Source: Nitrospirota bacterium (GTDB taxonomy: Bacteria; Nitrospirota; Nitrospiria; 2-01-FULL-66-17). Taken from it: a DNA stretch of 64,000 nt. Under the pieces are notes generated by a model that was given only the letters and a program-made list of their open reading frames with translations, ran no database searches and was not told where the DNA came from. Positions 1-15,278 of this stretch are shown here, piece by piece; position 1 is the stretch's first letter; each line of letters begins with the position of its first letter. The stretch lies in the NCBI GenBank assembly GCA_049325295.1, contig JBMOMD010000033.1:11588-75587 (forward strand). The letters run 5' to 3'. Position numbers and translations under genes: made by a program.

Positions 1-10
1 CATCAAGAAA

Positions 11-496
11 ATGGTATTCCCATCCGAGATCCTGCCGATCGTGAAAGTAGCGGCTGCGGTCGTCACTCATCTGATCGGGTTGGCGCTTCTACTCTGCCTA
101 TTGGGGGTTGTCGGGGATGGGATCTCGTGGCGGGTTGCGCTGATCGTGCCGTATCTGATCACTATCGTGTTCTTCGCATTGGGGATCTCGTGGGCGCTGT
201 CTGCGGTGAATGTCTTCGTGCGTGATATCGGGCAGGTGATTGGTGTCTTCGTCAACATTTGGTTCTTCTTGACGCCGATCGTTTATAGCCAAACGCTTGT
301 TCCGAATCCGCTGCAAGGTTTGTATGCTCTCAATCCGATGATATACGCCGTGGACGGATACCGATCCGCCATCCTGGGGACGGGAGCCGTTGACGTCAAT
401 GGGGTTGCCTATCTGGGGCTGCTGGGGCTGGCTGCATTCGCAATCGGGGGAGTGGTCTTCAAGAGGCTAAAGCCACAGTTTGTGGACGTTCTATAA
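11..496 (+). CDS. ABC-2 type polysaccharide exporter permease (Wzm/TagG-like), 5'-truncated at window edge
   Basis: Hydrophobic multi-TM translation; C-terminal 'LNPMIYAVDGYRSAILG' ABC-2 permease signature; immediately upstream of a Wzt-like ATPase. Confidence 0.75.
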   Translation: MVFPSEILPIVKVAAAVVTHLIGLALLLCLLGVVGDGISWRVALIVPYLITIVFFALGISWALSAVNVFVRDIGQVIGVFVNIWFFLTPIVYSQTLVPNPLQGLYALNPMIYAVDGYRSAILGTGAVDVNGVAYLGLLGLAAFAIGGVVFKRLKPQFVDVL

Positions 497-501
497 CGGG
501 T

Positions 502-1722
502 ATGCCTAAAGCGCTGGACGTTCAAGATCTCAGAAAGGTCTATCGGCTCTATCGTTCGCCGAAAGATCGCCTGCTGGAGCTTATCAGCCTGAAAGGTGGT
601 GGCCATCACAGGGAGTTTCCCGCCCTCGACGGGGCGTCATTCACTCTCGATCGAGGCGAAACCCTCGGAGTCATCGGACGAAATGGAAGCGGGAAGAGCA
701 CGTTGTTGAAGATTTTATGCGGCGTCACCCGCCCGACAAGTGGGACGGTTGAGGTGAGCGGACGGGTGGCTTCGTTGCTTGAATTGGGCGCCGGGTTTCA
801 CCCTGAATTCAGTGGGCGCGACAATGTGTATATGAATGGCTCGCTGATGGGGTTCAATAAGTCCGCGATGGACCGCCGACTCCCTGAAATCGAAGCGTTT
901 GCCGAGATCGGAGAGTTTATCGACCAACCGGTGAAGCGGTACTCCAGTGGCATGTTCGTTCGCCTGGCGTTCTCCGCCGCCATTAGCGTGGAGCCGGACA
1001 TTCTGATCATCGACGAGGCTTTGGGTGTTGGAGACCTCGGATTTCAGTTGAAATGCATTGAGAAACTCAAGGCGTTTCAACGGGAGGGACGCACGATCAT
1101 TTTGGTGACGCACCAGTTCCAAGCGTTGCGGAACTTCTGCACGCGCGTCCTTTGGTTGGATCAAGGAAAGATTCGGGGCGACGGTGATGTGATTACGGTG
1201 ACCGACGCATACCGAGATTTCATGAGTTGGGGCCAAGGTGCGGGGCAAGAAGCCGCGACGGAGGACGAGGACTCCGGAGGCTCCGTCTTGTCGATAAGTA
1301 GCGTGGATATCTTGGATAGGAACGTTCGCAAGGCAGAGGCGATCGAGTTCGGCGCTCCATTCTCGGTTGCGGTTTCCTATCGGCTGCATAAGCCATATGA
1401 GGGCCTCGTTGGGGGTGTGGCTATCGTGGGTAGAGAGGGAGTTACGGTCTGCGGCCTCACAACGAAGCGTGATGGTATTTCGCTCCCATCGGTGGCGGGG
1501 TCTTATACGCTGAACGTTTCCTTTCCTGAGCCCAAATTGCTTCCAGGAGCGTATCGAATCCGAGTCGTATTTCTCGAAAGTTCCGGGGTTGGTCGCATCG
1601 CCGTACAATACGATGCTGCTTCATTCACGGTGCGATCAACGGGGTACAAAGCGGAGGGTTTGTATTTACTTGCGCATCATTGGACCGTGAATGCTCTCTC
1701 CGACGCTGACGTGAAGAGGTGA
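502..1722 (+). CDS. ABC transporter ATP-binding protein, Wzt/TagH-like, with C-terminal ~150-aa extension (putative glycan-cap binding domain)
   Basis: Walker A 'GRNGSGKST', ABC signature 'YSSGMFVRLAFS', Walker B 'ILIIDEAL'; 406 aa versus ~250 for a bare NBD. Confidence 0.85.
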   Translation: MPKALDVQDLRKVYRLYRSPKDRLLELISLKGGGHHREFPALDGASFTLDRGETLGVIGRNGSGKSTLLKILCGVTRPTSGTVEVSGRVASLLELGAGFHPEFSGRDNVYMNGSLMGFNKSAMDRRLPEIEAFAEIGEFIDQPVKRYSSGMFVRLAFSAAISVEPDILIIDEALGVGDLGFQLKCIEKLKAFQREGRTIILVTHQFQALRNFCTRVLWLDQGKIRGDGDVITVTDAYRDFMSWGQGAGQEAATEDEDSGGSVLSISSVDILDRNVRKAEAIEFGAPFSVAVSYRLHKPYEGLVGGVAIVGREGVTVCGLTTKRDGISLPSVAGSYTLNVSFPEPKLLPGAYRIRVVFLESSGVGRIAVQYDAASFTVRSTGYKAEGLYLLAHHWTVNALSDADVKR

Positions 1723-1798
1723 CATGTCTAGCGGCGTTATTCCAGGGCGATCCGAGCGTGCCCCACGGAGAGCGGGATGATCGGGACTGCGTGGGGTC

Positions 1799-4618
1799 AT
1801 GAGGGGTGTGGTGGACGCTGAGAACTCGCCGCGAGCCGTGTGTATTCTCGGCATGCACCGCAGCGGCACGTCGGTGGTGTCGCGGGCCGTGAATCTGCTC
1901 GGTGCCTACATCGGCGAGGAGCGACAGTTGTTGCCTCCGGCGCCCGACAACCAAGAAGGGGTGTTCGAACGGCGCGATGTAGTCGAGTTCCATGACCGGC
2001 TGCTGTCGCGGCTTTTACGGCAGTGGCATTCGGTCGGGCTGCTGCCGGATGAGTGGGAGGGTCGCCCGGAGATTCGACCGTTCCGGGAGGAGCTCAGGAA
2101 GCTGGTCGTGACGCAGTTCGGGAAACACCCGTTGTGGGCGTGGAAGGATCCTCGGACGACCTTGCTGCTCCCGCTCTGGAAGGATGTGTTGGCCGAGTTG
2201 GGCATCTTGTTGTCCTGCGTGTACGTGGTGCGCAATCCGCTCGACGTCGCGCGGTCGCTCAAGAAACGCGACGGCTTTTCGTTCGAAAAATCGTGGGCCA
2301 TGTGGTTGACGGCGAATCTGTCCGCGCTGGATGCGGTTCACGATGTTCCGACCGTGTTCGTGTCGTACGACCGCCTGTTGAGCGATTGGGAGCCGGAGTT
2401 GCGGCGCTGTGCAACGGCGCTCGGGATTTCGTGGCCTGCCGACGACACGAGCATTCGCGAGGGCCTGCAGGGCTTTCTTCGCCCGGAGCTGCGGCACAGT
2501 GCGTCCCAGGCTGTCGAGTTATCGTCCGAACGCGCCCCTGACGGCGTCATTGAACTGTACCGGCTGCTGTGTGATGCCGCCAACGACGCGAAGCCGTTTT
2601 TGGATCCAGGGGTTCGCGCTGAGGTCGCCCGTGTTCGTCGGGGATTCTGCGATGCAGCGGGATTTTTTCGTCATGACATCGAGCGGCTGCTGGGGGCGGT
2701 GCGCGGACTTGAGCGGCAGGTCGAAAAACTTACCGTCGCGGCGAAGGAGCGAGAGGATGAGTTCAACCGCATCCATTATAAGTTCGCACGGCATCTCCTA
2801 ATAAAGTACCAGCGGGTGCGGGACATTCTGTGTCCCCTCCAATCCCGTCGACGCGCGGCTTACAGTTGGCTGGACATGCAGGCCAGGAAGATTATCGAGC
2901 ACGGCCCAGTGAATCTCCTCTACATGAAGTACTGGCCCTACCGGTTTTGGATCGCCAAGAACGAGCCGAAGGCCGCCCGGTTCCCGGCGATGCGGGCGGA
3001 GGCCAATGCCTGGTCATATCGGCCGCTGGTCAGCCTGGTGACGCCGGTGTTCAATCCCACGCGTTATGCCCTGACACGCTGTCTCGAGTCCGTGGCCAAT
3101 CAGCTCTACGACCGCTGGGAGCTGTGTATCGTCGACGGGAGATCAGATCAGCCGTACGTAAGGGAGATCATCGAGGAGTTCGCGCGCAAGGACCCAAGAT
3201 TCAAATTCGCACGGCTGGAATCGAATCGCGGGATCGCCGGCAACGCGAACGAGGCATTGCGGCTGGCGTCAGGAGAGTTTGTAGGGTTTCTGGACCACGA
3301 CGATACGCTCGCGCCCTTTGCGTTGTACGAAGTCGTGAAGGTGCTCAATCAGGGCGCGCGCGCGGACTTCATCTACTCCGATGAAGACAAGGTGCCGGCC
3401 ACCGGCGCAAGGCGATATGCCCCCGAGTTCAAGTCGGGGTGGGCGCCAGACACGTTCCTGTCCTACAACTACCTGTGCCACTTTGCGGTGGTGAGGAAGC
3501 GGATACTGGATGATCTGGGCGGGTTTCGCGAGGGGTACGACGGAGCGCAGGATTACGATCTGCTGTTGCGCGTCGTCGAGAAGACACAGGCGATTCGGCA
3601 CATTCCCAAGGTACTGTATCACTGGCGGGCCGCAGCCGAGTCGACTGCGGCCGGGGTGAAGCTGAAGCCGTATGCCGTCTCAGCCGCAAAGAAGGCCATC
3701 GGGGAATATTTAACTCGCCGCGGCCTGGACGCGGAGGTCATGGACGGCGACGCGCTGGGAAGTTACCGCGTCAAGTATCGCGTGCGGCCGGGTCAGCGCG
3801 TCAGCATCATCGTGCCCACCAGAGACAAGGTGCATCTGCTGGAACGTTGCGTGTCGTCCATCCTCGCCAAGACGAGTCACGAGGCCCTCACGATCCTGAT
3901 CGTCGACAACGGGAGTCGGGAGCCGGAGACGTTGGCGTACTTTGACCGCATTAAGGATCACGCCAAGGTCCGGGTGGAGCGGTACGACGAGCCCTTCAAT
4001 TTTTCCGCCATCAATAACTTTGCGGTTCGCGGCACGGACTCGGACTATCTGGTTTTTCTGAACAATGACACCGAGGTGATCAGCCCCGAGTGGCTCGACG
4101 CCATGTTGGAGTTCGCGCAGCGCGATGACGTGGGCGCGGTCGGCGCCAAGCTGTACTACCCTGATGACACCATCCAGCACGCCGGGACCATCGTAGGCTA
4201 TTGGGGCGTGGCGGACCACGCGCACAAGCATTATCCCCGGTCGGCCCGCGGGTACATGGGACGGATCAATATCATTCAGAATCTGAGCGCCGTCACGGCC
4301 GCGTGTATGATGATGCGCCGAAAGGTGTTCGACGAAGTGGGCGGGTACGACGAGGCGTTCTCGCATTCGTTCAACGACGTGGATCTCTGCCTGAGAATTC
4401 GGGACAAGGGCTATCTTGTCGTCTATACCCCGTACGCCGAGCTCTATCACCATGAATCCGTGAGTCGGGGCCATGACGAAAAACCGGAGGAGCGAGCGCG
4501 GCTGGACCGGGAGATCGCATTGATGAAGACGCGCTGGAAGCGCGTCTTCGATGCCGGCGATCCGTATTACAGTCCAAATCTCACGCTCGAGAAGACGGAT
4601 TTTAGCTTCAGAATTTAA
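1799..4618 (+). CDS. Tri-domain glycan biosynthesis enzyme: N-terminal sulfotransferase + two GT2 glycosyltransferase domains
   Basis: aa 15-155: 'ILGMHRSGTSV' (5'-PSB) and 'VVRNPLDVARS' (3'-PB) sulfotransferase motifs. Two GT2 cores ('VSLVTPVFNP..FLDHDD' and 'VSIIVPTRDK..IVDNGS..FLNNDT'). Confidence 0.8.
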   Translation: MRGVVDAENSPRAVCILGMHRSGTSVVSRAVNLLGAYIGEERQLLPPAPDNQEGVFERRDVVEFHDRLLSRLLRQWHSVGLLPDEWEGRPEIRPFREELRKLVVTQFGKHPLWAWKDPRTTLLLPLWKDVLAELGILLSCVYVVRNPLDVARSLKKRDGFSFEKSWAMWLTANLSALDAVHDVPTVFVSYDRLLSDWEPELRRCATALGISWPADDTSIREGLQGFLRPELRHSASQAVELSSERAPDGVIELYRLLCDAANDAKPFLDPGVRAEVARVRRGFCDAAGFFRHDIERLLGAVRGLERQVEKLTVAAKEREDEFNRIHYKFARHLLIKYQRVRDILCPLQSRRRAAYSWLDMQARKIIEHGPVNLLYMKYWPYRFWIAKNEPKAARFPAMRAEANAWSYRPLVSLVTPVFNPTRYALTRCLESVANQLYDRWELCIVDGRSDQPYVREIIEEFARKDPRFKFARLESNRGIAGNANEALRLASGEFVGFLDHDDTLAPFALYEVVKVLNQGARADFIYSDEDKVPATGARRYAPEFKSGWAPDTFLSYNYLCHFAVVRKRILDDLGGFREGYDGAQDYDLLLRVVEKTQAIRHIPKVLYHWRAAAESTAAGVKLKPYAVSAAKKAIGEYLTRRGLDAEVMDGDALGSYRVKYRVRPGQRVSIIVPTRDKVHLLERCVSSILAKTSHEALTILIVDNGSREPETLAYFDRIKDHAKVRVERYDEPFNFSAINNFAVRGTDSDYLVFLNNDTEVISPEWLDAMLEFAQRDDVGAVGAKLYYPDDTIQHAGTIVGYWGVADHAHKHYPRSARGYMGRINIIQNLSAVTAACMMMRRKVFDEVGGYDEAFSHSFNDVDLCLRIRDKGYLVVYTPYAELYHHESVSRGHDEKPEERARLDREIALMKTRWKRVFDAGDPYYSPNLTLEKTDFSFRI

Positions 4619-4658
4619 GAGGGTGGCCGTAGCCGAGCAGGCTATTCAGGGCGGGCGC

Positions 4659-5711
4659 GTGTCCGTCGCTCTGGCCACGTACAACGGCGGCTGGTACCTC
4701 GGGAAGCAACTTGAGAGCCTGGCGTCGCAAACGCTCAAGCCTCGCGAGCTGGTGGTCTGCGACGACGGTTCAACCGACGACACGGTCGCGATTCTTAAGG
4801 CATTTGCGTCCCGCGCCGCGTTCCCGGTACGGGTTCACGTCAATGACGTGAATCTCGGTTCCACCAAAAATTTCGAGCAGGCGATCCAGCGTTGCCAAGG
4901 CGATTTCATCGCGTTGTGCGATCAGGACGACGTGTGGCGTCCCCACAAGCTGGAGCGGGTGGTCGCGGCGTTCGGGGCTTCCCCGGATCTTGACGCCGTA
5001 TTCAGCGACGGCGAGGTCGTGGATGAGGACCTGCGGCCGTTGGGCTACGGACTATGGGATGCGGCGGGGTTTGGTGCGGTGCGTCGCCAGCGTATGGCGC
5101 AGGGGCGCGCGCTCGAGGTCTTGCTGAAAAACGACGTGGTCACCGGCGCCACCCTGGTGTTTCGCCGAGCGTTTCGCGACACGATCGTCCCGATTCCAGA
5201 GGTTTGGGTGCACGACGCGTGGATCGCGCTGGTGATCGTGGCGCTCGGAGGAAAACTGGGGGCCATCGACGACCCGCTGATTCTGTATCGCAAGCATCGC
5301 CGGCAACAAGTCGGTGTGGTCTCGCGTTCGGATGACGGCGCGCTGGCGTGGGTCTGGTCGTCGTTGGGAGACGTGCGGCGTGACGTGGACGGCTACGTGG
5401 CGACCGGCGACGAGCTATACGCCTTGTTCGCGGAGCGGTACCAGGCCGCGGGCGAGCGGCTGGCGGCTCTCGGCGACCGCGTGGATCCGCGCGCGGTCGC
5501 GGGATGCCGGGCCAAGGTCGCGCACTTTCGCGCCCGGATCGCGATGACGGCCCATCCCTGGTTGAGGTTTCCATTGGTTCTCGGCGAGTTGGCGCGCCTT
5601 CGCTATTTCCGGTATTCGAGCGGGGCCAAGAGTCTGGCCAGAGATCTGGTCCGCGCGGCCATGTTTTGGACTCCGCCGGGTCATCGGAGTCCTCGGGTGT
5701 CGGTGTGGTGA
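4659..5711 (+). CDS. Family 2 glycosyltransferase (track ORF starts 4551; GTG 4659 likely true start)
   Basis: 'VSVALATYNGGWYL..LVVCDDGSTDDT..ALCDQDDVW' GT2 fold; ORF 4551 overlaps upstream gene so an internal GTG start is favoured. Confidence 0.7.
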   Translation: MSVALATYNGGWYLGKQLESLASQTLKPRELVVCDDGSTDDTVAILKAFASRAAFPVRVHVNDVNLGSTKNFEQAIQRCQGDFIALCDQDDVWRPHKLERVVAAFGASPDLDAVFSDGEVVDEDLRPLGYGLWDAAGFGAVRRQRMAQGRALEVLLKNDVVTGATLVFRRAFRDTIVPIPEVWVHDAWIALVIVALGGKLGAIDDPLILYRKHRRQQVGVVSRSDDGALAWVWSSLGDVRRDVDGYVATGDELYALFAERYQAAGERLAALGDRVDPRAVAGCRAKVAHFRARIAMTAHPWLRFPLVLGELARLRYFRYSSGAKSLARDLVRAAMFWTPPGHRSPRVSVW

Positions 5712-6676
5712 CCCCTCACACGAACATCCCCTTGGTGGTGATCATCGTGCTGAACTGGAACGGGCGCGACGACACCGTGGCGTGCGTCGAGTCGGTCCGC
5801 GGGTTGCGGTATCGCAAGGCCAATGTGTTGATCGTGGACAACGGGTCAACGGATGATTCGGTCGCGACGTTCTCTCGGCGATTTCCGGATATCCGCTGCA
5901 TTCAGACCGGTGAGAATCTTGGGTTCGCCGAGGGCAACAACGTGGGCATGCGCGCGGCATTGGCGGAGGGCGCGGACTACGTGTTCCTGCTGAACAATGA
6001 TGCGACGATCGAACCGGATGCGCTCGATCGGTTGGTCGATGCGGCGGAATCACACCCCGATGTCGGCATCGTCGGGCCCAAAATCTATTACGCGGCTGAG
6101 CCCAAGCGAATCTGGTACGCGGGCGGCACGATTAGTCCGCTGGGACGGCTTGGCCACGAGGGGTGGAACCGGATCGACGACGGGCAATGGGACACGCCGC
6201 GCGAGACCGGGTACGTGACGGGCTGCGCCTTCCTGGTCAAGCGTGCGGTGTTGGAGAAGGCCGGCTTGTTCGCGCCGGAGTACTTTCTGCTGTTTGAAGA
6301 AGCCGACCTCTGCGTGCGCGGGCGGCGCGAGGGTTTTCGGTCTTGGGTGGAGCCTCGGGCAACCGTGTATCACAAGGTCTCGGCGTCATTCGGCGGTTTT
6401 TCGCCGCGGTATTACTACTACTTTCTGCGAAACTACCTGCTCTTTCAGCGCCGTCACGTGATTCCGGTGAAGGGATGGGCGGCGCGGCTCGCCATCGCGT
6501 TCTATGTGGTTCGCGTGTTCGCATATTTGACCCTGACGCCGCATCGCGGCGGCTGGCGGAACCTGGCCGCGGCGTGGGAGGGAGTCGGGGATTACCTGCG
6601 CGGGCGATGGTTCGAGCGCGGCGTACACCGTCGCCTGGGCGAGGACGCAGCATGGCGGGTATCAGCTCGAATATGA
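5705..6676 (+). CDS. Family 2 glycosyltransferase (rhamnosyltransferase-like); start GTG 5705/5708 overlapping upstream stop
   Basis: '[53 protein letters not shown]' GT2 motifs; GTGA overlap with preceding gene. Confidence 0.75.
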
Positions 6677-7236
6677 GAGAAAGGGGAGCCTCAGTGGGAA
6701 AGACAGCGAGTGGTTTTACGATCTGGTTCACCGGCCTGTCCGGCGCGGGCAAGACCACGGTCGCTCATCGATTGGCGGAGATGTTGCAGCAGCGCATGGG
6801 CCGCGAGGTCGAGATCCTGGACGGGGACGTGGTGCGCACGCACCTGAGCAAGGGGCTTGGGTTCAGCCGCGAGGATCGCGACACCAATATCCGGCGCATC
6901 GGCTGGGTCTGCCACGTGTTGACCAAACACGGGGTGCCAAACATCGCGGCCGCGATTTCCCCGTACCGCGGGGTGCGCGATGAGGTGCGCAAGATGGTGG
7001 GGCGGTTCGTGGAGGTCTACGCCGACTGTCCGCTCGATGTGTGCGAGCAGCGCGACGTGAAGGGGCTGTATCGCAAGGCGCGGGCCGGCGAGCTCAAGCA
7101 ATTCACGGGGATCGACGATCCGTACGAAGCGCCGCTTAATCCCGAGGTCACGCTGCACACGGACCGGGAGAGCGTGGAGCAGAGCGCGATGAAGGTCGTT
7201 CGGAAGCTGGAGGAGATGGGCTGGTTGGGGCGGTAG
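6673..7236 (+). CDS. cysC: Adenylyl-sulfate (APS) kinase, stand-alone
   Basis: '[15 protein letters not shown]' P-loop, '[10 protein letters not shown]', 'SPYRGVRDE' typical of CysC; ATG 6673 overlaps upstream TGA (ATGA). Alternative starts 6652 / 6694. Confidence 0.85.
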
Positions 7237-7383
7237 GGGTCAGGGCGCGTCGTGGGTCGCCGGCTCGGTGAGAAATGGGGCAATTCGCTGGGTGCGCAAT
7301 GGGTTGTTGGTCGTACGGGCCATCCAAACTGCTGGGTTCGCGAAAGGCACCTTTGGTGCGAGCCGTGCGGCAGATGTGGTGTG

Positions 7384-7680
7384 TTACGCGGCGCTGCGGG
7401 ACCAGGTCTGAGCCCTGGTGATGAGTTCCTCCCGGAAACGCGGCCAGTCGTGTAGAGTGGCAGGGTCGAAATCAGCGCCGTTCGGCCACGCTATTGTCCG
7501 GACTTCGTGATCAATGCGGACCTGCTGAAACAGGGACGAATCTCGTAACGGCCCGTAGAGTTCTCCCGCCAGCACCGGTTCAAAGTCGATTACCTGGACA
7601 CTGCGGTCGTCGAACGTGAGTCGCAGGGTATATGCGCCCACGATCTCAACGTGTGTCACACTGTGAATTGGGTGTTCCAT
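7384..7680 (-). CDS. DUF2442-family small protein (putative antitoxin partner of DUF4160)
   Basis: ~98-aa translation from 'MEHPIHSVTHVEIVG..' matches DUF2442 pattern; directly downstream of a DUF4160 gene on the same strand. Confidence 0.65.
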   Translation of the reverse strand: MEHPIHSVTHVEIVGAYTLRLTFDDRSVQVIDFEPVLAGELYGPLRDSSLFQQVRIDHEVRTIAWPNGADFDPATLHDWPRFREELITRAQTWSRSAA

Positions 7681-7691
7681 GTCTCGTCTCC

Positions 7692-7961
7692 TCACGAGAG
7701 CGGTCTGATCGGCACCGCTTTCCGACCATCTTGCAAGAGGCGCCAATCGTTGAGCAACTCGGCCTGGTGAAGTTCTGCCCAGGCTTCGACCAGGCGCTGC
7801 TGGCGTGTCGGGAGCGCCCCCGCAATCTGTGCAACCGGCTCGATACTGTAGATGCCGACCTTGTCCTGATAGTACGCGTGGAAATGGGGAAGGTGATGCG
7901 GTCCACCGATTTCCACGTACATACGAATGATGATCCCAAAAAATCGGCTGATCTCGGGCAT
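7692..7961 (-). CDS. DUF4160-family small protein (putative toxin-like partner)
   Basis: '[31 protein letters not shown]' is the characteristic DUF4160 N-terminus; start trimmed from track ORF 8036 to the conserved Met. Confidence 0.65.
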
Positions 7962-8046
7962 GAGACCGTACCAGTGGTGGCAGCCTACCAGGAGGAATAG
8001 GACGGTGTCAAACGACGGGCGATCTGGTACGCCCACGCCACTCCGT

Positions 8047-8223
8047 GATTTCCAAGGCCTCTACCGCAAGGCGCGGGCCGGCGAGCTCAAGCAATTCACG
8101 GGGATCGACGATCCCTACGAAGCCCCGCTTGACCCTGAAGTTACACTGCACACGGACCGGGAGAGCGTGGAGCAGAGCGCGTTGAAGGTCGTGCGGAAGC
8201 TGGAAGAGCTGGGGTGGTGCTGA
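8047..8223 (+). pseudogene. Diverged duplicate of the 3' end of cysC (APS kinase C-terminal 57 codons), not a complete gene
   Basis: Encodes '[53 protein letters not shown]', near-identical to cysC residues at 7063-7236 with many synonymous differences. Confidence 0.7.
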
Positions 8224-8355
8224 CGCGTCGCGCATCTGGTTGTGTTCATCGACTCACGGTATGCGATACGAGTAAGAAGAAAATGAACATGGTCATAGTC
8301 GGCGCCTGAATCCGTCGCGTTGACATGGTGTAGCCAATAGGATACACTTCCCTCC

Positions 8356-8646
8356 GTGATGGAAATTCGCAAGACCGACGTGTTCGCCAAATGGCTCGAC
8401 CGGCTGCGCGACATTCGGGCCAGGGCGCGCGTTCAGGCCAGGATCGAGCGGCTGGCGTTTGGAAACGCGGGGGACGTCAAGCCGGTTGGCGAAGGCGTCT
8501 CGGAGCTGCGGATCAACTACGGGCCGGGATACCGGGTGTACTTTACCAAGCGTGGGCGCGACGTGGTAATTCTCCTGGCGGGAGGGGACAAGAGCACTCA
8601 AGCCGGCGATGTCGAACTCGCCTTGCGCCTGGCACGCAACCTATAG
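8356..8646 (+). CDS. Type II toxin, RelE/ParE superfamily (HigB-like addiction-module killer protein)
   Basis: 96 aa; 'FAKWLDRLRD..RARVQARIERL..GDVKPVGEGVSELRINYGPGYRVYF' typical of HigB-like toxins; antitoxin immediately downstream. Confidence 0.8.
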   Translation: MMEIRKTDVFAKWLDRLRDIRARARVQARIERLAFGNAGDVKPVGEGVSELRINYGPGYRVYFTKRGRDVVILLAGGDKSTQAGDVELALRLARNL

Positions 8647-8655
8647 GAGTGTACA

Positions 8656-8955
8656 ATGCGAAAAACTACAACCAGTCGCTACGATGTCGCCGAGCACCTC
8701 CGAACTCCCAAGGAGATGGCCGCCTACTTTGAAGCGTGCCTCGAAGAGGCCAACGGCGACGCGGCGTTTATTGCCAAGGCTCTGGGGGACATTGCCCGTG
8801 CGAGGGGCATGGCACAGGTCGCTCGCGATGCGGGCCTTTCCCGAGAAAGCCTTTACAAGGCGCTCTCCGGTCGACGCAGCCCGGGCTTCGACACGATCCT
8901 CAAGGTCATCGCAGCGCTGGGATTGAAGTTGCACGCGGAAGCGATTCGGAACTAA
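8656..8955 (+). CDS. HigA-family antitoxin (XRE-type HTH addiction-module antidote protein)
   Basis: 99 aa; 'YDVAEHLRTPKEMAAYFEACLEE..AFIAKALGDIARARGMAQVARDAGLSRESLYKALS' matches HigA-type antidote proteins. Confidence 0.8.
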   Translation: MRKTTTSRYDVAEHLRTPKEMAAYFEACLEEANGDAAFIAKALGDIARARGMAQVARDAGLSRESLYKALSGRRSPGFDTILKVIAALGLKLHAEAIRN

Positions 8956-9365
8956 CGACGTTCGCCCACCTCGTGATGACGATCAGGGGCGGCACGAGCC
9001 GGCGCCGGATTGTAGAGGCGTGCGTTCCAACGGAACAATGGACAGCCCGCCCCGTTCGCCTTCCTGCTGACGGAGGACAAGCTCCGCGAGTGCCGTGCGA
9101 TGACGGCCGAAGAAACGCTGCGCTGGCTTGAAGAGGTCAAGGCCTTCGTGAGGAATCGTGCTCCCGGAGCGGTTGGCGCGATGGACGCGACTTCTTCAAG
9201 AACGTGACGGGCCGGCCCGCGCCGGCGACGATCGTCCGTAGTCATTGATCAGGTTGTCGCGGCCGACGCCCCACGCCTCGCCACGAACCAACACCGAACA
9301 CCGAACAACGCCTCTACCGGCTAACCGGCCCACCGGCTAACCGGCGAACCGCACTGTCATCAAAA

Positions 9366-9977
9366 TCAGTTCAACCCCGGGTCCCGCGGCATATTCGCGT
9401 ATTTGGCGTGGCGCGGGCCCAGCGAACGCATCAACTCCGGCCACACCACTTTGGGGTCCGCGTCGAAAATCCATTTGGAGTCGGCGGGCACCACGATCCA
9501 GGAGTCCGTTTCCATTTCCGTGTCGAGTTGGCCCTGCGACCAGCCGGCGTATCCGGCGTAGCCGCGAAACGCGGCTTCCTGCGGCATGGGCGGGATCTCG
9601 GCGGCGCCCGGCGCGGCTTCGCGCTCCGCGGTCGGGTCGAGCAGGGATTTGAGGGTCGGGAGGTCCGTGCCGAGGTACACGTCGCCGAACACGTGGTGGG
9701 ACGAGGGCGGCGTCAACTCGGAGCGGATCAGAATCAACAGGTGATCGGGCTGCACTGGGCCGCCGGAATAGATGACGTCGTCGCGCTCGGTGCCGGCGAG
9801 CTGGTGCACGGCTTCGGTGAGCACGAGTTCGGTCGGTCGGTTGATCACCAACCCCATGCTGCCGCGATCGTTGTGCTCGCAGAGCAGGATCACCGCCTGC
9901 CGAAAATTCGGGTCGTACATGCCGGGACCCGCGATGAGAAAGGTCCCTTTGTCGAGCGTGGGGGTCACGAAATCCAT
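9366..9977 (-). CDS. YqgE/AlgH family protein (UPF0301)
   Basis: 'LIAGPGMYDPNFRQAVILLCEHNDRGSMGLVINRP' signature; start trimmed to the conserved Met. Confidence 0.8.
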   Translation of the reverse strand: MDFVTPTLDKGTFLIAGPGMYDPNFRQAVILLCEHNDRGSMGLVINRPTELVLTEAVHQLAGTERDDVIYSGGPVQPDHLLILIRSELTPPSSHHVFGDVYLGTDLPTLKSLLDPTAEREAAPGAAEIPPMPQEAAFRGYAGYAGWSQGQLDTEMETDSWIVVPADSKWIFDADPKVVWPELMRSLGPRHAKYANMPRDPGLN

Positions 9978-10255
9978 CGTATAACCGGCTCGATGGAAAG
10001 TCCAGCGCGGCCGTAACGGCGCGCGCGTGGTCGGGGCGCGATTTCTTGACAAGGGGTACCCCCTGGGCTAGAGTCAGCTCCGCACGGCGAGTATAGTAAC
10101 TATAGTCGGCGGATCGCCGCGCCGTGCGCCGCACCATCAGTCCCGGGTCGGGGAAGACCAACAAGGATGACTGGGAACCATAGGGACGTGATGCGCAGCC
10201 TCCGTATGGCCCGACTGGGCGTCCAAGCCGTCGGTTCACAACGCGGGATGGTCGC

Positions 10256-11938
10256 GTGACCCCGCGCTGGGTCAACTCGTACGAGCCCGGGATCTCCCCC
10301 GCGCTCCGGTATCCCGCCGTTCCCCTGCATCAACTGCTCGCCGCCACGGCCGCGAAGTATCCGGAGAATCCCGCGTTGGATTTCTACGGGCGTCGCGTGA
10401 CCTACCGGGAGTTGGACCGCGCCGCGAACCGGTTCGCCAACGCCCTCGCCGGCTTGGGCGTTCGCAAGGGGGATCGGGTGGCGGTGATGTTGCCCAACGC
10501 GCCGCAGGCCGTGATCGCGTATTACGGCGCGCTCAAGCTCGGGGCGGTGGTGGTCGAGGTCAATCCGCTGTACGTTGAACGGGAAATCGAACAGCAGGTG
10601 CGCGACGCCGAGGCGCGCGTGCTGGTGGCGCTCGATCTGTTCTATCCGCGGATCGAGCCCATCCGGGCGCGCGCGGGGCTGGAGGCCGTGATCATCACCT
10701 CGGTGCGGGACGCGTTGCCGTGGCATCTGGCCTTGTTGTACCCGATCAAGGCGTGGCGCGAAGGCACGCGCGTGTCCGTGCCCAACACTCCGCCCGTGTA
10801 CGAGTACCGATCGCTCGTGGCCGCGGCGTCGGAGACGGCCCCGGCCGTCGAGGTGGCGCCGGACGATCTGGCGCTCCTGCAATACACCGGCGGCACCACC
10901 GGGATTCCCAAGGGCGTGATGCTCACCCACCGGAACCTGGTCGCCAATACCCTGCAATGCCGCGCGTGGATGCCGTCCTTGCGCGACGGCGCGGAGGTCT
11001 TTCTGGGCGTGGTCCCGTTTTTCCACGTGTACGGGATGACCGCCTGCATGAATCTGGCGATTTACACCGGCGGGTTGATCGTGTTGCTCCCGCGCTTCGG
11101 GACCAAGGACGTGTTGCGCGCCATCGTGAAGTCGCGCGCCACGATCTTCATGGGCGTGCAGGCGATGTACGTGGCGATCAATAATTTCCCGGACGTGCGC
11201 CGATACGATCTCTCGACCATTCGCATCTGCATCAGCGGCGCGGGTCCGTTGCACGTGGAGGTCCAGGAGCGGTTCGAGGCGTTGACCGGCGGCAAGGTGG
11301 TGGAAGGGTTCGGGTTGAGCGAGGCCTCGCCGGTCACGCACGTCAATCCGATCTTCGGGCGACGGATCAAGGGCACCATCGGGTTGCCGTTGCCGGACAC
11401 CGAGGCTAAAGTAATGGACGTGGAGTCGGGAACGCGCGAGATGCCCCTGGGCGAGGCCGGTGAATTGGTGATCCGCGGGCCTCAAGTCATGAAGGGGTAT
11501 TGGCGGCGTGCCGATGAAACCGCCGGGGTCTTGCGCAACGGCTGGCTGCACACCGGGGACATCGCGACCGTTGACGCCGACGGGTATTTCACGATCGTGG
11601 ACCGCAAGAAGGACATGATCAAGACCAAGGGCGAAAACGTCTATCCGCGCGACATCGAGGAAGTCCTGTTCCGGCATCCCAAGATCAAGGACGCGGTCGT
11701 GGTCGGGGTGCCGGAAGAGTTCATGGGCGAGATGATCAAGGCGTACGTGGTGCTCCGGGACGGCGAAACCGCGACCGAAAACGAGATCGTCGAATATTGC
11801 GGACGGGAATTGGCCAAATTCAAGGTGCCCAAAGCCGTGGAATTCCGTCAGGAACTGCCGCGGACCATCGTGGGGAAAGTGCTGCGCCGCGTCCTGTTGG
11901 ACGAGGAGCTGAAGAAACGTCATGCCATGGCAGGATGA
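10256..11938 (+). CDS. fadD: Long-chain fatty acid-CoA ligase
   Basis: AMP-binding motif 'LQYTGGTTGIPKGVMLTHRNL', 'GYGMTA', C-terminal 'GKVLRR'. Confidence 0.85.
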   Translation: MTPRWVNSYEPGISPALRYPAVPLHQLLAATAAKYPENPALDFYGRRVTYRELDRAANRFANALAGLGVRKGDRVAVMLPNAPQAVIAYYGALKLGAVVVEVNPLYVEREIEQQVRDAEARVLVALDLFYPRIEPIRARAGLEAVIITSVRDALPWHLALLYPIKAWREGTRVSVPNTPPVYEYRSLVAAASETAPAVEVAPDDLALLQYTGGTTGIPKGVMLTHRNLVANTLQCRAWMPSLRDGAEVFLGVVPFFHVYGMTACMNLAIYTGGLIVLLPRFGTKDVLRAIVKSRATIFMGVQAMYVAINNFPDVRRYDLSTIRICISGAGPLHVEVQERFEALTGGKVVEGFGLSEASPVTHVNPIFGRRIKGTIGLPLPDTEAKVMDVESGTREMPLGEAGELVIRGPQVMKGYWRRADETAGVLRNGWLHTGDIATVDADGYFTIVDRKKDMIKTKGENVYPRDIEEVLFRHPKIKDAVVVGVPEEFMGEMIKAYVVLRDGETATENEIVEYCGRELAKFKVPKAVEFRQELPRTIVGKVLRRVLLDEELKKRHAMAG

Positions 11939-11977
11939 AGTGGATACGAGAAACCACAGGTGGAGTCGGGAGCGCGT

Positions 11978-13168
11978 ATGAAAGACGTGGTGATCGTTGA
12001 CGGAGTTCGCACCCCGATCGGGAACTTCGGCGGGGCCTTGAAGGACGTGACCGCCCATGCCATGGGCGCGGCCGTGGTCAAGGCGGTGGTGGAGCGCACC
12101 AAAATCGCGCCCGACGCGGTGGACGAGGTGATTTTCGGCTGCGTGGGCCAACACTCCGACGCGACCAACATGGCCCGCAACATCGCGCTCTACGCGGGCC
12201 TGCCGATCACGGTGCCGGCGTACACGGTCCAGCGCAATTGCTCCTCCGGGTTGCAGTCGCTGGTCAACGCGTACCAGAACATCCAGGCCGGCGACGCGGA
12301 CGTGCAGATCGTGGGCGGCACCGAGAGCATGAGCCAGGCCCCGTTCGTGTCGCGCGACATGCGGTGGGGCAAACGCCTCAAACACGGCTCGTTCATCGAC
12401 AGCATCTGGGAAGGGTTGACCGACGGGTTCTGCGGCCAGATCATGGGGTACACCGCGGAGACGTTGGCCGAGGAGTTCAAGATCGGCCGCGAAGAGCAGG
12501 ACAAGTTCGCCCTGCTCTCGCACAAGCGGGCGTTTCGCGCGGTGCGGGAGGGTAAGTTCAAGGACGAACTCATGACGGTGATGGTGCCCAAGAAGATGGC
12601 CGGCAAGGAGGTCACGCCCGAGCCGTTCGCGCAGGACGAAGGGCCGAACGCCGCGCTCACCGAACAGCAGCTCGCGCTCTATCCCACCGTGTTCAAGGAG
12701 GGCGGAACCGTCACCCCCGGCAACTCCTGTTCGCTCAACGACGGCGCCGCGGCCGCGCTCGTGATGTCGGCGGAGCGGGCCCGCGCGCTCGGGTACGAGC
12801 CGCTGGGATACATTCGGTCGTACGCGTTCGTCGGGGTCGAGCCGCAGCGCATGGGGATCGGGCCGGCCGAGGCGATTCCGATCGCGCTCAAGAAGGGCAA
12901 GCTGTCGCTGGCCGACATCCAACTGTTCGAGATCAACGAGGCGTTCGCGGCCCAATATCTGGCCGTGGAGCGCAAGTTGGGCCTGAATCGCGACATCGTG
13001 AACGTGAACGGCGGCGCGATCGCGTTGGGCCACCCGGTGGGCATGACCGGCACCCGGCTCGCGATCACGGTGCTCCGCGAGATGAAACGCCGGAACCTGA
13101 ATCTCGGGATCGCGAGCATGTGCGTGGGCGGGGGCATCGGCGCCGCCATGGTGCTGGAGAGAAAATAA
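11978..13168 (+). CDS. Acetyl-CoA acetyltransferase (thiolase)
   Basis: 'VVIVDGVRTPIG', active-site 'NRNCSSGLQ', C-terminal 'NVNGGAIALGHPVGMTG'. Confidence 0.9.
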   Translation: MKDVVIVDGVRTPIGNFGGALKDVTAHAMGAAVVKAVVERTKIAPDAVDEVIFGCVGQHSDATNMARNIALYAGLPITVPAYTVQRNCSSGLQSLVNAYQNIQAGDADVQIVGGTESMSQAPFVSRDMRWGKRLKHGSFIDSIWEGLTDGFCGQIMGYTAETLAEEFKIGREEQDKFALLSHKRAFRAVREGKFKDELMTVMVPKKMAGKEVTPEPFAQDEGPNAALTEQQLALYPTVFKEGGTVTPGNSCSLNDGAAAALVMSAERARALGYEPLGYIRSYAFVGVEPQRMGIGPAEAIPIALKKGKLSLADIQLFEINEAFAAQYLAVERKLGLNRDIVNVNGGAIALGHPVGMTGTRLAITVLREMKRRNLNLGIASMCVGGGIGAAMVLERK

Positions 13169-13242
13169 GATCGAAACGGCGTGGGCCGGTTTGCCGGTTT
13201 GCCGGTGCGCCGGTTTGCGTGCAACTCAGATGAGGAGGCGAT

Positions 13243-14475: not shown

Positions 14476-14495
14476 GGGACTCAAGGAGGAGTCGC

Positions 14496-15278
14496 ATGCC
14501 ACGGCAGTATCTGACGGTGACCACCGAGGATCGCGTCGCGACGGTGACGTTCAGCAACCCGCCGGCCAACGCGCTGAGCAGTCCGGTGATGACGGAAATC
14601 GAAGAGGTGTTCCGCGAACTGGCCGCCGATCAGGCGGTGAAGGCCGTGGTGTTCACGGGGGCGGGGCAACTCTTCATTTCCGGCGCGGACATCCAGGAAG
14701 TGGCGGGGATCGCGGACGCGGCGAAAGGCCGCGAACTCACGGCGCGCGGCCAGCGGATCTTCGATCAGATCGAACGGATGGACAAGCCGGTCATCGCCGC
14801 GATCAACGGCCTCTTTTGCCTGGGCGGGGGGATGGAGTTGGCCATGGCGTGCCACCTGCGCGTGGCGGGCGAGCGCGTGCGCATGGGACAGCCTGAAATC
14901 GACCTCGGCATCATTCCCGGGTTCGGCGGGACCCAGCGACTGGTGCGTCTGGTGGGACAGGCCAAGGCGATCGAGCTGATCCTCACCGGGGACAAAATCC
15001 CCGGGACCGAGGCCAAGGCGATCGGCTTGGTGAACAAGGTGGTGCCGGACGGCGAGGTGGTCAAGCAGGCGCAGGGGCTCGCCAAAAAAATCGCGGGCAA
15101 GAGCGCGGTGGCGGTCCGCGCCGCGATGCGCGCGATCCGCGAGGGCATCGGGCGACCCCTGGCCGACGGCCAGGCGCTCGAGTCCGAGTTGTTCGGCCAG
15201 GTGTGCGAGAGCGCGGACAAACGCGAGGGCGTGACCGCGTTCCTCGAAAAACGGCAGCCCAAGTTTCAAGACCGGTGA
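14496..15278 (+). CDS. Enoyl-CoA hydratase (crotonase family)
   Basis: 'AINGLFCLGGGMELAMACHLRVA' crotonase signature. Confidence 0.85.
   Translation: MPRQYLTVTTEDRVATVTFSNPPANALSSPVMTEIEEVFRELAADQAVKAVVFTGAGQLFISGADIQEVAGIADAAKGRELTARGQRIFDQIERMDKPVIAAINGLFCLGGGMELAMACHLRVAGERVRMGQPEIDLGIIPGFGGTQRLVRLVGQAKAIELILTGDKIPGTEAKAIGLVNKVVPDGEVVKQAQGLAKKIAGKSAVAVRAAMRAIREGIGRPLADGQALESELFGQVCESADKREGVTAFLEKRQPKFQDR

Follow-up and report, generated by a model that had tools for sequence, protein, structure and literature searches.

What does a PAPS-type sulfotransferase do in a locus that builds a glycan and exports it through an ABC transporter, and does its sulfate lie along the polymer or at its end? 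The locus in question occupies positions 1-7236 of a 64-kb stretch of DNA from a diderm Nitrospirota bacterium (64,000 nucleotides, hereafter the window) and carries six genes on the forward strand: a partial wzm, wzt, a gene for a 939-aa fusion protein, two GT2 genes and cysC. We determined gene content, domain identities, fold and cofactor motifs, the helix and its heptads, the exchange of heads with a methyltransferase and the family-wide association with wzt in silico. Pfam and NCBIfam profile searches, together with the ORF coordinates, bore out the six same-strand genes and the identities that a first-pass annotation had given them, and the cluster is a real locus for an ABC-transporter-dependent (Wzm/Wzt) cell-surface glycan. 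All six genes were found, but the window edge cuts the locus inside wzm, so that only the 3' part of this ABC-2 permease gene is present (1..496; ABC2_membrane, E 6e-12) and its start lies to the left. The product weakly matches the galactan export permease Wzm/RfbD in a profile search, and its orthologs in three related loci (L001, the closest relative, L002 and L003) are 261-275 aa long.

The gene calls held for identities and stops, but the fourth and fifth genes probably start further downstream than annotated. The fourth gene (4623..5711) encodes a stand-alone GT2 enzyme (Glycos_transf_2, 91.6 bits), a candidate adaptor enzyme or third polymerase activity. Its ORF opens at ATG 4551, and GTG 4623 or GTG 4659 better fits the 352-aa ortholog in L001. 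The fifth gene (5705..6676) encodes another stand-alone GT2 enzyme (Glycos_transf_2, 71.9 bits), with a weak match to the rhamnosyltransferase model TIGR01556 (68 bits, below the cut-off); it more likely starts at GTG 5705 or 5708 than at the ORF-opening ATG 5504, with a GTGA overlap with the preceding stop (5709-5711).

The fusion gene (1799..4618) is the candidate polymerase-terminator of the locus, and its product consists of a head, a long helix and two GT2 modules. The head (aa ~11-265; 1829..2593) is a bona fide PAPS-type sulfotransferase, as judged from its sequence and its predicted structure. The first-pass annotation had called it a sulfotransferase, and the call stood, narrowly by profile (Sulfotransfer_3 on aa 14-213, a marginal 28.0 bits against a Pfam cut-off of 27) and with the agreement of motifs and fold. 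The 5'-PSB residues G18/H20/R21/S22/G23/T24/S25, the 3'-PB residues R145/P147/S153 and also E57 are invariant in 25 homologs. The AlphaFold2 (AF2) model (pLDDT 87) matched sulfotransferases exclusively in Foldseek at E <= 0.001, among them TPST, CurM ST, OLS ST and SULTs. It could be argued that the head has a sulfotransferase-like fold but is degenerate or non-catalytic, transfers no sulfate and serves, for instance, as a scaffold or nucleotide-binding regulator. The Pfam score is indeed merely 1 bit above the cut-off, and a PDB sequence search found no sulfotransferase. However, both PAPS-binding motifs and E57 are invariant, the fold matches PAPS-bound sulfotransferases, and a search at E <= 1e-10 counted 14,804 cluster representatives in this large, conserved family. 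We thus consider a non-catalytic head highly improbable; by motif and model, the domain looks catalytically competent.

The overall architecture had been overlooked in the first-pass annotation, namely sulfotransferase head, coiled-coil helix, two-GT polymerase and Wzt binding domain. AF2 predicted a single helix of 75 residues over aa 270-344 (2606..2830), a candidate coiled-coil spacer or ruler. The heptad score reached 0.70-0.74 in this helix (strongest at aa ~281-330), compared with a maximum of 0.50 in the catalytic domains; this score is home-made, and the coiled-coil state rests on it and on monomer AF2 models, with pLDDT low over aa 291-331 in the full-length model. Across homologs, the spacer between the sulfotransferase head and the GT2 modules varies from 95 to 552 aa, and in 89 homologous fusions heptad-positive residues make up 28% of the spacer but 1.2% elsewhere, a 23-fold enrichment. 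Variable length together with heptad enrichment is as expected of a variable ruler. The two GT2 modules (aa ~411-611 and ~667-885; 3029..4453), a candidate polymerase, were recognized by Glycos_transf_2 (164 bits in two stretches, the best at aa 412-573) and Glyco_tranf_2_3 (94.6 bits, aa 667-885). AF2 was confident over both domains in the full-length model, and among solved structures the two-domain chondroitin polymerase K4CP (2z86; E 1.3e-26) is closest to them.

The preceding gene, wzt (502..1722), encodes an ABC ATPase (aa 1-245; ABC_tran, 79.5 bits in Pfam) with a C-terminal carbohydrate-binding domain (aa ~261-388; nt ~1282-1665) that matches Wzt_C as a complete domain (59.5 bits, cut-off 30.4). 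In characterised systems, such a domain accompanies a terminal cap that is needed for export (PMC9445017; PMC11231755). The closest solved relative of our Wzt is WzmWzt of A. aeolicus (8dku, E 8e-69 over aa 6-357; also 7k2t), whose export likewise depends on recognition of a cap (PMC9445017). There, however, a small hydrophobic pocket accommodates the cap, which is 3-O-methyl mannose or rhamnose. R352 and R354 of our Wzt align with the pocket residues T344 and T346 of the A. aeolicus protein in a pairwise alignment, which is suggestive only. Among 26 other Wzt proteins compared, the two arginines recur in L001 and L031 only, and the binding domains of sulfotransferase-adjacent Wzt proteins did not reveal a shared basic pocket.

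The closest parallels in layout are ORF6 of K. pneumoniae O7 and WbbB of O12, in which a terminating enzyme at the N-terminus is followed, on one polypeptide, by a coiled-coil spacer and a C-terminal pair of GT modules (GT2 modules in ORF6). The coiled-coil protein always houses the terminator, at the distal end (PMC11231755). Their genes also adjoin wzm and a wzt with a carbohydrate-binding module, and further stand-alone GTs provide the other linkages. In our protein the head is a PAPS-dependent sulfotransferase, whereas it is a methyltransferase-kinase in O7 and a beta-Kdo transferase in O12; our helix is shorter, and the likeness to ORF6 is one of layout. The trifunctional WsaE of Geobacillus stearothermophilus NRS 2004/3a similarly joins an N-terminal capping domain (2-O-methyl) to two rhamnosyltransferase domains (PMC2943079). 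Its gene comes immediately after wzm and wzt, the start and stop codons overlapping, but WsaE has a methyltransferase head and a Gram-positive host, and its glycan ends up on an S-layer protein. In E. coli O9a/O8, WbdD is also encoded directly after wzt, carries its catalytic head on a coiled coil that serves as a molecular ruler, and makes a cap that is read by the binding module of Wzt. It has no sequence relationship to our protein, and it is a kinase and/or methyltransferase that recruits a separate polymerase, WbdA, whereas the polymerase is fused here.

We also surveyed homologs of the fusion and the loci around them. This sulfotransferase head was present in 90 of the 120 best homologs, and some homologs have another enzyme in its place or in addition to it. 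P0004 is 78% identical to our protein over everything from aa 279 onward, a position within the long helix, but begins with a Methyltransf_24 domain (104 bits) that takes up its first ~217 aa; P0016 carries the same head ahead of its GT2 modules. Two further polymerase homologs have a SAM-methyltransferase head (P0030) and both methyltransferase and sulfotransferase heads (P0084). In GTDB species genomes, a Wzt was encoded in 29 of 79 related sulfotransferase loci and was extended at its C-terminus by 110 aa or more in 23 of these 29, and the sulfotransferase domain started within 400 nt of the wzt stop in 15 loci, counts that have no formal null model behind them. The gene order is wzm, wzt, terminator-polymerase, GT, GT, and many stand-alone sulfotransferases of the family (about 480-650 aa) also sit directly after wzt. 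The Wzt ATPase itself is fused to a sulfotransferase domain in L021 of Paenibacillus (Sulfotransfer_1, 72.6 bits; the Wzt proteins of L025 and L033 align with the same C-terminal region) and to a methyltransferase in L003, which suggests that modification is tied to export. In Effusibacillus dendaii (L089), a sulfotransferase-headed fusion adjoins rml genes and a gene for an SLH protein.

The combination of sulfotransferase head, coiled-coil helix, two-GT polymerase and Wzt binding domain speaks for a cap at the chain end more than for a polymer sulfated throughout. We accordingly lean, on sequence, models and analogy, towards a Wzm/Wzt assembly line of the polymerase-terminator type in which sulfate would be the chain-terminating cap, a reading that we hold to be somewhat better than an even bet. 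Sulfate is not among the described caps, and we infer it here. The following scheme, from the acceptor and the terminal position of the sulfate to the ruler and the nature and destination of the glycan, is likewise what we infer. The glycan, most likely an LPS O-polysaccharide in this diderm host, would be assembled on a polyprenol carrier in the cytoplasm. The task of the two stand-alone GT2 enzymes would probably be adaptor synthesis or a third linkage, and the two C-terminal GT2 modules of the fusion would polymerise the repeat. The helix of ~75 residues, probably a coiled coil in an oligomer, would keep the PAPS-dependent sulfotransferase away from the polymerase, so that only a chain grown to sufficient length would reach the head and be sulfated on its non-reducing terminal sugar. 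Terminal sulfation would stop elongation, and the binding domain of Wzt would recognise the sulfated end and license export through Wzm/Wzt. The co-translated APS kinase may raise the supply of PAPS, using APS from an ATP sulfurylase encoded elsewhere.

Several observations speak for this model: the complete Wzt_C domain, the head-helix-two-GT layout matching WbbB, O7 ORF6 and WsaE, the clean head swap at aa 279, a family with variable heptad-rich spacers and a frequent position beside wzt, and an apparently competent sulfotransferase in a cluster whose cysC is co-translated with the last GT2. In addition, profile searches between wzm and cysC found no other candidate terminator (methyltransferase, kinase or Kdo transferase). 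On the other side stand the short helix (about 50-75 residues) compared with that of WbdD, and the sulfotransferase-adjacent Wzt binding domains without a common basic pocket. Upstream of wzm, the closest relatives have an HTH regulator, and L001 has two Sulfotransfer_2 genes and a small methyltransferase, which means that the terminator could be another enzyme and that in-chain sulfation could also occur.

The sulfotransferase might instead decorate every or many repeat units, with the sulfated polysaccharide exported by Wzm/Wzt, cysC as a dedicated PAPS booster and the fusion to the polymerase only ensuring co-synthetic modification. The sulfotransferase and cysC are real and co-translated with GTs, and extra stand-alone sulfotransferases in L001, L002 and V. 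vulnificus (in the last, between wzt and the fusion gene) suggest more than one sulfation event per chain. Sulfate-activation genes accompany a sulfotransferase in nodPQ/nodH of rhizobia, where ATP sulfurylase is included (nodP/nodQ). A published precedent is Vibrio sp. KMM 8419, whose ABC-exporter glycan cluster of the Kps type contains sulfotransferases and copies of cysC/N/D and yields a stoichiometrically sulfated capsule (PMC11641403). That cluster, however, has the full activation set including ATP sulfurylase (cysD/cysN) and places sulfate on every repeat unit, whereas our locus, in contrast to both systems, has cysC as its sole activation gene and combines a terminator-like architecture with a Wzm/Wzt exporter that carries a binding domain. 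In-chain sulfation also leaves unexplained the heptad helix of highly variable length between head and polymerase, the exchange with methyltransferase heads at the helix boundary, the frequent position right after a wzt with a binding-domain-sized extension and the source of the cap that such a Wzt requires; moreover, cysC also occurs in clusters without a sulfotransferase. We regard it as rather unlikely, although the choice between terminal and in-chain sulfation is beyond what sequence can decide. The sulfated-polysaccharide pathway proposed initially is thus retained for its genuine sulfotransferase, but the layout favours the terminal cap over a generally sulfated polymer.

The remaining question is whether cysC (6673..7236; APS_kinase, 210 bits; NCBIfam PRK00889, 283 bits, cut-off 244) serves this sulfotransferase. 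Its ATG at 6673 overlaps the TGA of the last GT2 (6674-6676) in an ATGA, as reported earlier; other possible starts in the same frame are ATG 6652 and GTG 6694, and AAAGGGGAG precedes the GTG. The gene was rightly described as free-standing: toxin-antitoxin, DUF179 and beta-oxidation genes follow it rather than an assimilatory operon, and ~40 ORFs scanned in the rest of the 64-kb window gave no match to ATP sulfurylase, CysD, CysN, CysH or sulfite reductase. The locus holds only half of a PAPS supply, and APS must come from an ATP sulfurylase encoded elsewhere.

It is also quite conceivable, at a little under even chances, that cysC is a housekeeping APS kinase for PAPS-dependent sulfate assimilation whose place beside a hypervariable glycan locus is fortuitous, comparable to that of gnd or galF at enterobacterial O-antigen loci, and that the sulfotransferase takes its PAPS from the common pool. 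The proposal bears on cysC alone and is compatible with either a terminal cap or in-chain sulfation. Orthologs 81-90% identical hold the same position in L085, L086 and L087, beside GT/methyltransferase clusters (with a Wzm permease in L085) and with no sulfotransferase homolog within 10 kb on either side. Nucleotide identity to L001 is 89% for cysC, close to the 86% of the housekeeping flank, whereas the glycan genes reach 76% or show no detectable similarity. Only 10 of the 79 related sulfotransferase loci have a cysC nearby, and the cysC fragments and toxin-antitoxin modules that recur at the junction are expected of a recombination boundary. Against a chance neighbour, the ATGA overlap couples cysC translationally to the last GT2, no other sulfate-assimilation gene lies nearby, and cysC sits between GT genes inside the glycan locus in L002, L085 and L087. 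Its linkage to the fusion gene also persists in L001, L002 and L003 and survived rearrangement in L003, where the order differs and cysC lies directly upstream. The dedicated PAPS source suggested in the first-pass annotation keeps this coupling and linkage, but the locus has no ATP sulfurylase, and a dedicated supply is not supported because close cysC orthologs flank methyltransferase-type clusters without a sulfotransferase. We conclude that cysC is a conserved locus-edge gene that adds little to the argument for a terminal cap.

Just beyond it, an inserted toxin-antitoxin pair on the reverse strand (7384..8036; DUF4160/DhiT toxin at 7692..8036, DUF2442 partner at 7384..7746), missing from the syntenic L001, is outside the pathway and marks the edge of the locus. 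It is followed on the forward strand by a relic of the 3' end of a second cysC (8056..8223), in which 163 nt are 90% identical to 7063-7225 and the Pfam APS_kinase match is confined to profile positions 117-151. The relic shares 82.7% nucleotide identity with the cysC of L001, compared with 89% for the intact copy.

All six plus-strand genes claimed for the glycan locus by the first-pass annotation were present where it had placed them. The first is the 3' part of wzm (ending at 496), an ORF that runs off the left window edge and encodes the C-terminal part of an ABC-2 permease (ABC2_membrane, E 6e-12). It is followed by wzt (502..1722), whose product matched ABC_tran (79.5 bits) and contains a complete Wzt_C domain (Pfam; 59.5 bits, cut-off 30.4; positions 8-141 of the 143-position profile). 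Wzm and Wzt are encoded together, the best solved relative of Wzt is A. aeolicus WzmWzt, and, with its binding domain, the transporter belongs to the Wzm/Wzt family. The third gene (1799..4618) encodes a 939-aa protein that matched Sulfotransfer_3 at aa 14-213, Glycos_transf_2 in two stretches (the best at aa 412-573) and Glyco_tranf_2_3 at aa 667-885. The fourth and fifth genes, which encode GT2 enzymes, end at 5711 and 6676. The start codons originally assigned to these two genes are probably too early; GTG at 4623 or 4659 for the fourth gene and GTG at 5705 or 5708 for the fifth are preferred, and they fit the ortholog lengths in L001, the closest related locus from another genome. With its GTG start, the fifth gene overlaps the stop before it (GTGA), and the ATG of the sixth gene, cysC (start at 6673), overlaps the TGA (6674-6676) of the last GT2 gene. 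Both the fourth-fifth and the fifth-cysC junctions are therefore 4-nt overlaps, an arrangement typical of translational coupling. A promoter and terminator scan of 1-9400 stayed at chance level (3 promoter-like sites vs 2.2 expected, 7 terminator-like sites vs 8.7) and thus says nothing about operon boundaries. Among the window ORFs scanned with Pfam, we found no polyprenyl-phosphate glycosyl-phosphate transferase, ligase (WaaL) or other acceptor step. Given that genes for the initiating transferase and the ligase are often encoded elsewhere, their absence from 64 kb is weak evidence.

The N-terminal domain of the 939-aa protein, hereafter the head, had been called a sulfotransferase. Its Pfam match was marginal, since it passed the Sulfotransfer_3 cut-off narrowly (28.0 bits vs 27) and stayed below that of Sulfotransfer_1 (16.9 vs 22). 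A PDB sequence search with aa 1-400 returned no sulfotransferase and only a chance prefoldin match (E 0.81), so that a fold search was needed. The head contains GMHRSGTS (aa 18-25) and RNPLDVARS (aa 145-153), and G18, H20, R21, S22, G23, T24, S25, R145, P147 and S153 were invariant in an alignment of 25 full-length homologs. We take the G18-S25 stretch to be the 5'-phosphosulfate-binding loop and R145-S153 to be the R-x7-S 3'-phosphate-binding motif. E57 was likewise invariant in this alignment and is a candidate catalytic base. The AlphaFold2 model of aa 1-400 had a mean pLDDT of 87, and all of its 18 Foldseek matches in the PDB at E <= 0.001 were PAPS sulfotransferases (probability 1.00), including TPST, the CurM ST, the olefin synthase ST and SULTs; StaL, Teg12, Stf0 and 3-OST fell just short of this threshold. 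Judged by the invariant motifs, the predicted model and the Foldseek matches, which settle the matter despite the marginal Pfam score, the domain is a sulfotransferase, in agreement with the original call. An identical-sequence look-up for the 939-aa protein gave no record, so its context was drawn from homologs.

In the AlphaFold models, a single long helix of 75 residues (aa 270-344) separates the head from the first GT2 module. The heptad score at this helix was 0.70-0.74, and no more than 0.50 in the catalytic domains; the score is a simple, home-made one, and the coiled-coil call rests on it and on monomer AlphaFold2 models. In the full-length AlphaFold2 model, pLDDT is low over aa 291-331, within the helix. 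Among 89 fusions analyzed, 28% of the residues in the spacer between the head and the polymerase modules were heptad-positive, vs 1.2% elsewhere, and the spacer ranged from 95 to 552 residues among the homologs. The closest solved relative of the two GT2 modules is the two-domain polymerase K4CP, and the GT2 pair is a candidate polymerase of predicted activity. The same sulfotransferase head stood N-terminal to the GT2 pair in 90 of the 120 best homologs of the whole protein.

In some homologs the head is replaced. One is P0004: from aa 279, a position within the long helix, down to the C-terminus it shares 78% identity with the window protein, but where the latter has the sulfotransferase it begins with a Methyltransf_24 domain (104 bits) of ~217 residues. 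P0016 likewise has a Methyltransf_24 head followed by the GT2 modules, and the more distant polymerase homologs include a SAM-methyltransferase head (P0030) and a methyltransferase followed by a sulfotransferase (P0084). Given that terminal O-methylation is the archetypal cap, this exchange of methyltransferase and sulfotransferase on one helix-polymerase chassis is the strongest comparative evidence that the two heads do an equivalent job. Three homologs of ~1280 aa (P0079, P0084 and P0089) carry, in order, a SAM-methyltransferase, a sulfotransferase, a ~215-aa spacer and the GT2 pair. These double heads recall two-enzyme methyl-phosphate terminators, and combined methyltransferase and sulfotransferase heads may produce compound caps.

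The head-helix-two-GT architecture resembles the design described for chain termination in ABC-transporter-dependent synthesis (PMC11231755, PMC9445017), in which the terminator always lies distally on a coiled-coil 'molecular ruler' (PMC11231755) and a carbohydrate-binding module of Wzt reads the cap (PMC11231755, PMC9445017). As here, K. pneumoniae O12 WbbB and O7 ORF6 are each one polypeptide with two GT modules at the C-terminus (PMC11231755), and WsaE of G. stearothermophilus, encoded directly after wzm and wzt, joins a methyltransferase to two rhamnosyltransferase domains (PMC2943079). The window system would work like WbbB, O7 ORF6, WsaE and WbdD, whereas its head family differs: the head is a member of the PAPS-sulfotransferase superfamily, outside the head families of these four proteins. 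The caps named in PMC9445017 and PMC11231755 are methyl, (methyl)phosphate and Kdo, and sulfate is not mentioned in either. The full-text literature that we searched, with incomplete coverage (most subscription journals lie outside it), held no publication linking a sulfotransferase to chain termination, or WbdD with a sulfotransferase.

We put the probability slightly above even that the locus is a sulfate-capping polymerase-terminator Wzm/Wzt system. What we observed in silico are the identities of the domains, the fold and motifs of the head, the helix, the exchange of heads and the genomic associations. The catalytic and recognition steps, all of which we infer, would run as follows. The glycan would be built on a lipid carrier in the cytoplasm, polymerized by the GT2 pair together with the two separate GT2 enzymes, and cysC would raise PAPS. 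Elongation would stop once the growing non-reducing end arrives at the sulfotransferase head, on the far side of the helix; after sulfation, this end would be bound by the C-terminal domain of Wzt, and the chain exported. The main alternative is that the head sulfates residues within the chain and thereby yields a sulfated polymer, as in the capsule of Vibrio sp. KMM 8419, whose sulfation has been chemically proven (PMC11641403). We consider this clearly the less likely of the two. Relatives of the locus hold extra stand-alone sulfotransferases, so that capping and in-chain sulfation are not mutually exclusive. The locus of Aeromonas salmonicida contains an unexplained sulfotransferase ORF directly after wzt, and the O-antigen repeat is free of sulfate (PMC4483657); a cap added once per chain would leave just this pattern. 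Since the window is cut inside wzm, another terminator could be encoded upstream, where L001 has a small methyltransferase. If sulfation is in-chain, the locus would simply join the sulfated-polysaccharide clusters known from earlier work.

A pattern scan with the two head motifs found at least 586 confirmed relatives in GTDB species genomes. Among the 79 analyzable related loci, for which the counts come with no null model, 29 contained a Wzt-like ATPase (23 of these extend C-terminally by 110 residues or more), 24 had the head fused to GT2 homologs, and in 15 the sulfotransferase domain began within 400 nt of the wzt stop. The last is also the position of wbdD in E. coli O9a. An exhaustive HMMER search of cluster representatives (50% identity) gave 20,854 matches at E <= 1e-3, 14,804 at 1e-10 and 3,332 at 1e-30, with the head domain nearly always N-terminal. 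The family spans Nitrospirota, Proteobacteria including Vibrio vulnificus, Firmicutes, Chloroflexota and other phyla. It is systematically under-annotated: four proteins of 540-640 aa encoded directly after wzt (in loci L015, L032, L066 and L075) have no Pfam domain, yet matched the head by phmmer at E 1e-40 to 2e-65, and the precomputed Pfam lists of the homologs P0001 and P0002 also contain no sulfotransferase. Tentatively, and at somewhat less than an even chance, we suggest that sulfate is a fourth chemical class of export-licensing, chain-terminating cap, added by a large family of N-terminal sulfotransferase heads that would occur on coiled-coil rulers fused to polymerases.

Cultivated organisms carrying both a wzt with the binding domain and a sulfotransferase-spacer-GT2-GT2 gene include Vibrio vulnificus and Effusibacillus dendaii; in the latter these genes adjoin dTDP-rhamnose genes and an SLH protein gene. 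In one Vibrio vulnificus locus (L088, 7904-19623), a wzt with the binding domain is accompanied by a stand-alone sulfotransferase and a sulfotransferase-spacer-GT2-GT2 gene; the glycan genes lie ~1.7 kb from a cysD/Na-sulfate-symporter-like/cysC/cysN cluster, with an opposite-strand beta-CASP gene between them. Some Wzt proteins carry a modifying domain themselves. In L021 from Paenibacillus, the gene at 15788-17764 encodes a Wzt ATPase joined by a TPR to a C-terminal Sulfotransfer_1 domain (72.6 bits), of another type than the window head, that replaces or supplements the binding domain, and the Wzt proteins of L025 and L033 align with this C-terminal region and have the same cofactor motifs. 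A cysC gene lies immediately downstream of the Wzt fusion gene in L021 and of wzt in L033. The Wzt of L003 (5869-7866) consists of ABC_tran, Wzt_C and a C-terminal Methyltransf_11 domain, and this locus also holds a sulfotransferase-GT2-GT2 fusion. We also considered R352 and R354 of the window Wzt, which align with T344 and T346 of the A. aeolicus protein, as a sulfate-binding signature of the binding domain. This was dropped, since among the Wzt proteins compared the two residues were shared only by those of L001 and L031; the majority of Wzt proteins encoded next to a sulfotransferase belong to a different subfamily (Y-F-L-N-A-G-V).

In ABC-dependent synthesis of O-antigens, S-layer glycans and cell-wall glycans, termination coupled to export serves as quality control. 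If sulfate capping is true, then this control would include an anionic, PAPS-dependent cap, so that the length of a surface glycan would be tied to sulfur metabolism, and the binding domains of Wzt would have a new specificity. It would also account for the unassigned sulfotransferase genes found beside wzt in published loci, a once-per-chain substituent being easily missed, and would give a function to thousands of proteins that, as Pfam often fails to detect the head, are labelled only 'glycosyltransferase'. Tractable test organisms would then be Vibrio vulnificus, V. metschnikovii, Effusibacillus dendaii, Paenibacillus, Dyella and Lamprocystis.

The gene proposed to supply PAPS, cysC, is an unambiguous APS kinase gene (APS_kinase in Pfam, 210 bits; in NCBIfam, PRK00889, 283 vs 244, and TIGR00455, 231 vs 139) whose product has an intact P-loop, GLSGAGKTT. 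It had been interpreted as a dedicated PAPS source, unless it belonged to an assimilatory operon continuing downstream. No such operon was found: the downstream genes are toxin-antitoxin modules, a DUF179 gene on the opposite strand and beta-oxidation genes. A Pfam scan of ~40 further ORFs across the 64 kb detected no ATP sulfurylase, CysD/CysN, CysH or sulfite reductase, and ATP-sulfurylase, CysD and CysN domains were likewise not found in L001-L003. The kinase is thus real and free of a downstream assimilatory operon, but the case for a dedicated PAPS source is weaker than first proposed: alone, the kinase is half of such a supply, and it is not specific to clusters with a sulfotransferase. 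In the related loci L085, L086 and L087, cysC orthologs with 81-90% identity occupy the same locus position next to clusters of GT and methyltransferase genes (in L085 together with a Wzm permease), and phmmer found no relative of the window sulfotransferase or of the L001 Sulfotransfer_2 genes within 10 kb on either side of them. Furthermore, cysC was within the fetched region in only 10 of the 79 related sulfotransferase loci (GTDB species genomes). On the other hand, in L003 cysC has moved directly upstream of the fusion gene, and this relocation, together with the ATGA overlap in the window, favors cysC as a functional partner. Literature on PAPS-route sulfate assimilation in Nitrospirota was not decisive.

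The last 163 nt of cysC occur twice at 90% identity (7063-7225 and 8056-8218), with a minus-strand DUF4160 (DhiT-like toxin)/DUF2442 pair (7384-8036) between the copies. The second copy is a fragment that covers only APS_kinase profile positions 117-151, and its identity to the L001 cysC is 82.7% vs 89% for the intact copy; it appears to be what survives of an older cysC after a replacement or insertion event at the edge of the glycan locus. A promoter-like TTGACA-17-TACACT lies at 8320-8348, and a second toxin-antitoxin module follows at 8356-8955, with a RelE/ParE-family toxin gene (8356-8646; TIGR02683, 132 bits) and a 99-aa ORF (8656-8955). L001 contains neither of the two modules nor the second cysC 3' copy (window 7384-8955). 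Partial extra cysC copies are also found in L086 (11999-12601, aa 71-186) and L085 (8537-9022, aa 11-55), where they adjoin inserted toxin-antitoxin genes (DUF433/DUF5615, HicB-like, DUF2442 and PemK). The cysC junction appears to be a recurrent hot spot of insertion or recombination. Given these partial copies and the conserved position of cysC beside clusters in which no sulfotransferase was found, the gene behaves like a conserved anchor that lies at the border of a hypervariable glycan locus or within it.

The closest homologs of the 939-aa protein come from Nitrospirota MAGs, and that of L001 is 81% identical. L001 is syntenic with the window from wzm to cysC and then through genes for DUF179, acyl-CoA synthetase, thiolase, 3-hydroxyacyl-CoA dehydrogenase and enoyl-CoA hydratase (window 9366-15278). 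In L001, wzm is preceded by genes for an HTH regulator and a methyltransferase and by two Sulfotransfer_2 genes, and in L002 and L003 the HTH regulator likewise lies upstream of wzm, which indicates that the window edge truncates the locus. Nucleotide identity to L001 is 76% or undetectable in the glycan genes, 89% in cysC and 86% in the housekeeping flank. Third-position GC is 0.68-0.77 in the glycan genes vs 0.80-0.90 in the rest of the window, and GC is 56.7% in the first 2 kb vs about 62-70% elsewhere in the window. Such low GC and divergence are typical of laterally exchanged surface-glycan loci. Elsewhere in the window, a 1634-aa ORF (57535-62439) has a multicopper-oxidase domain near aa 200-304, the rest having no Pfam match at E <= 1e-6. 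In addition, a 521-aa protein (41179-42744) has an aminoglycoside-phosphotransferase-like (APH) domain and, at its C-terminus, a kinase-like AAA_33 domain; a neighboring gene, on the opposite strand, encodes an RNA 3'-phosphate cyclase.
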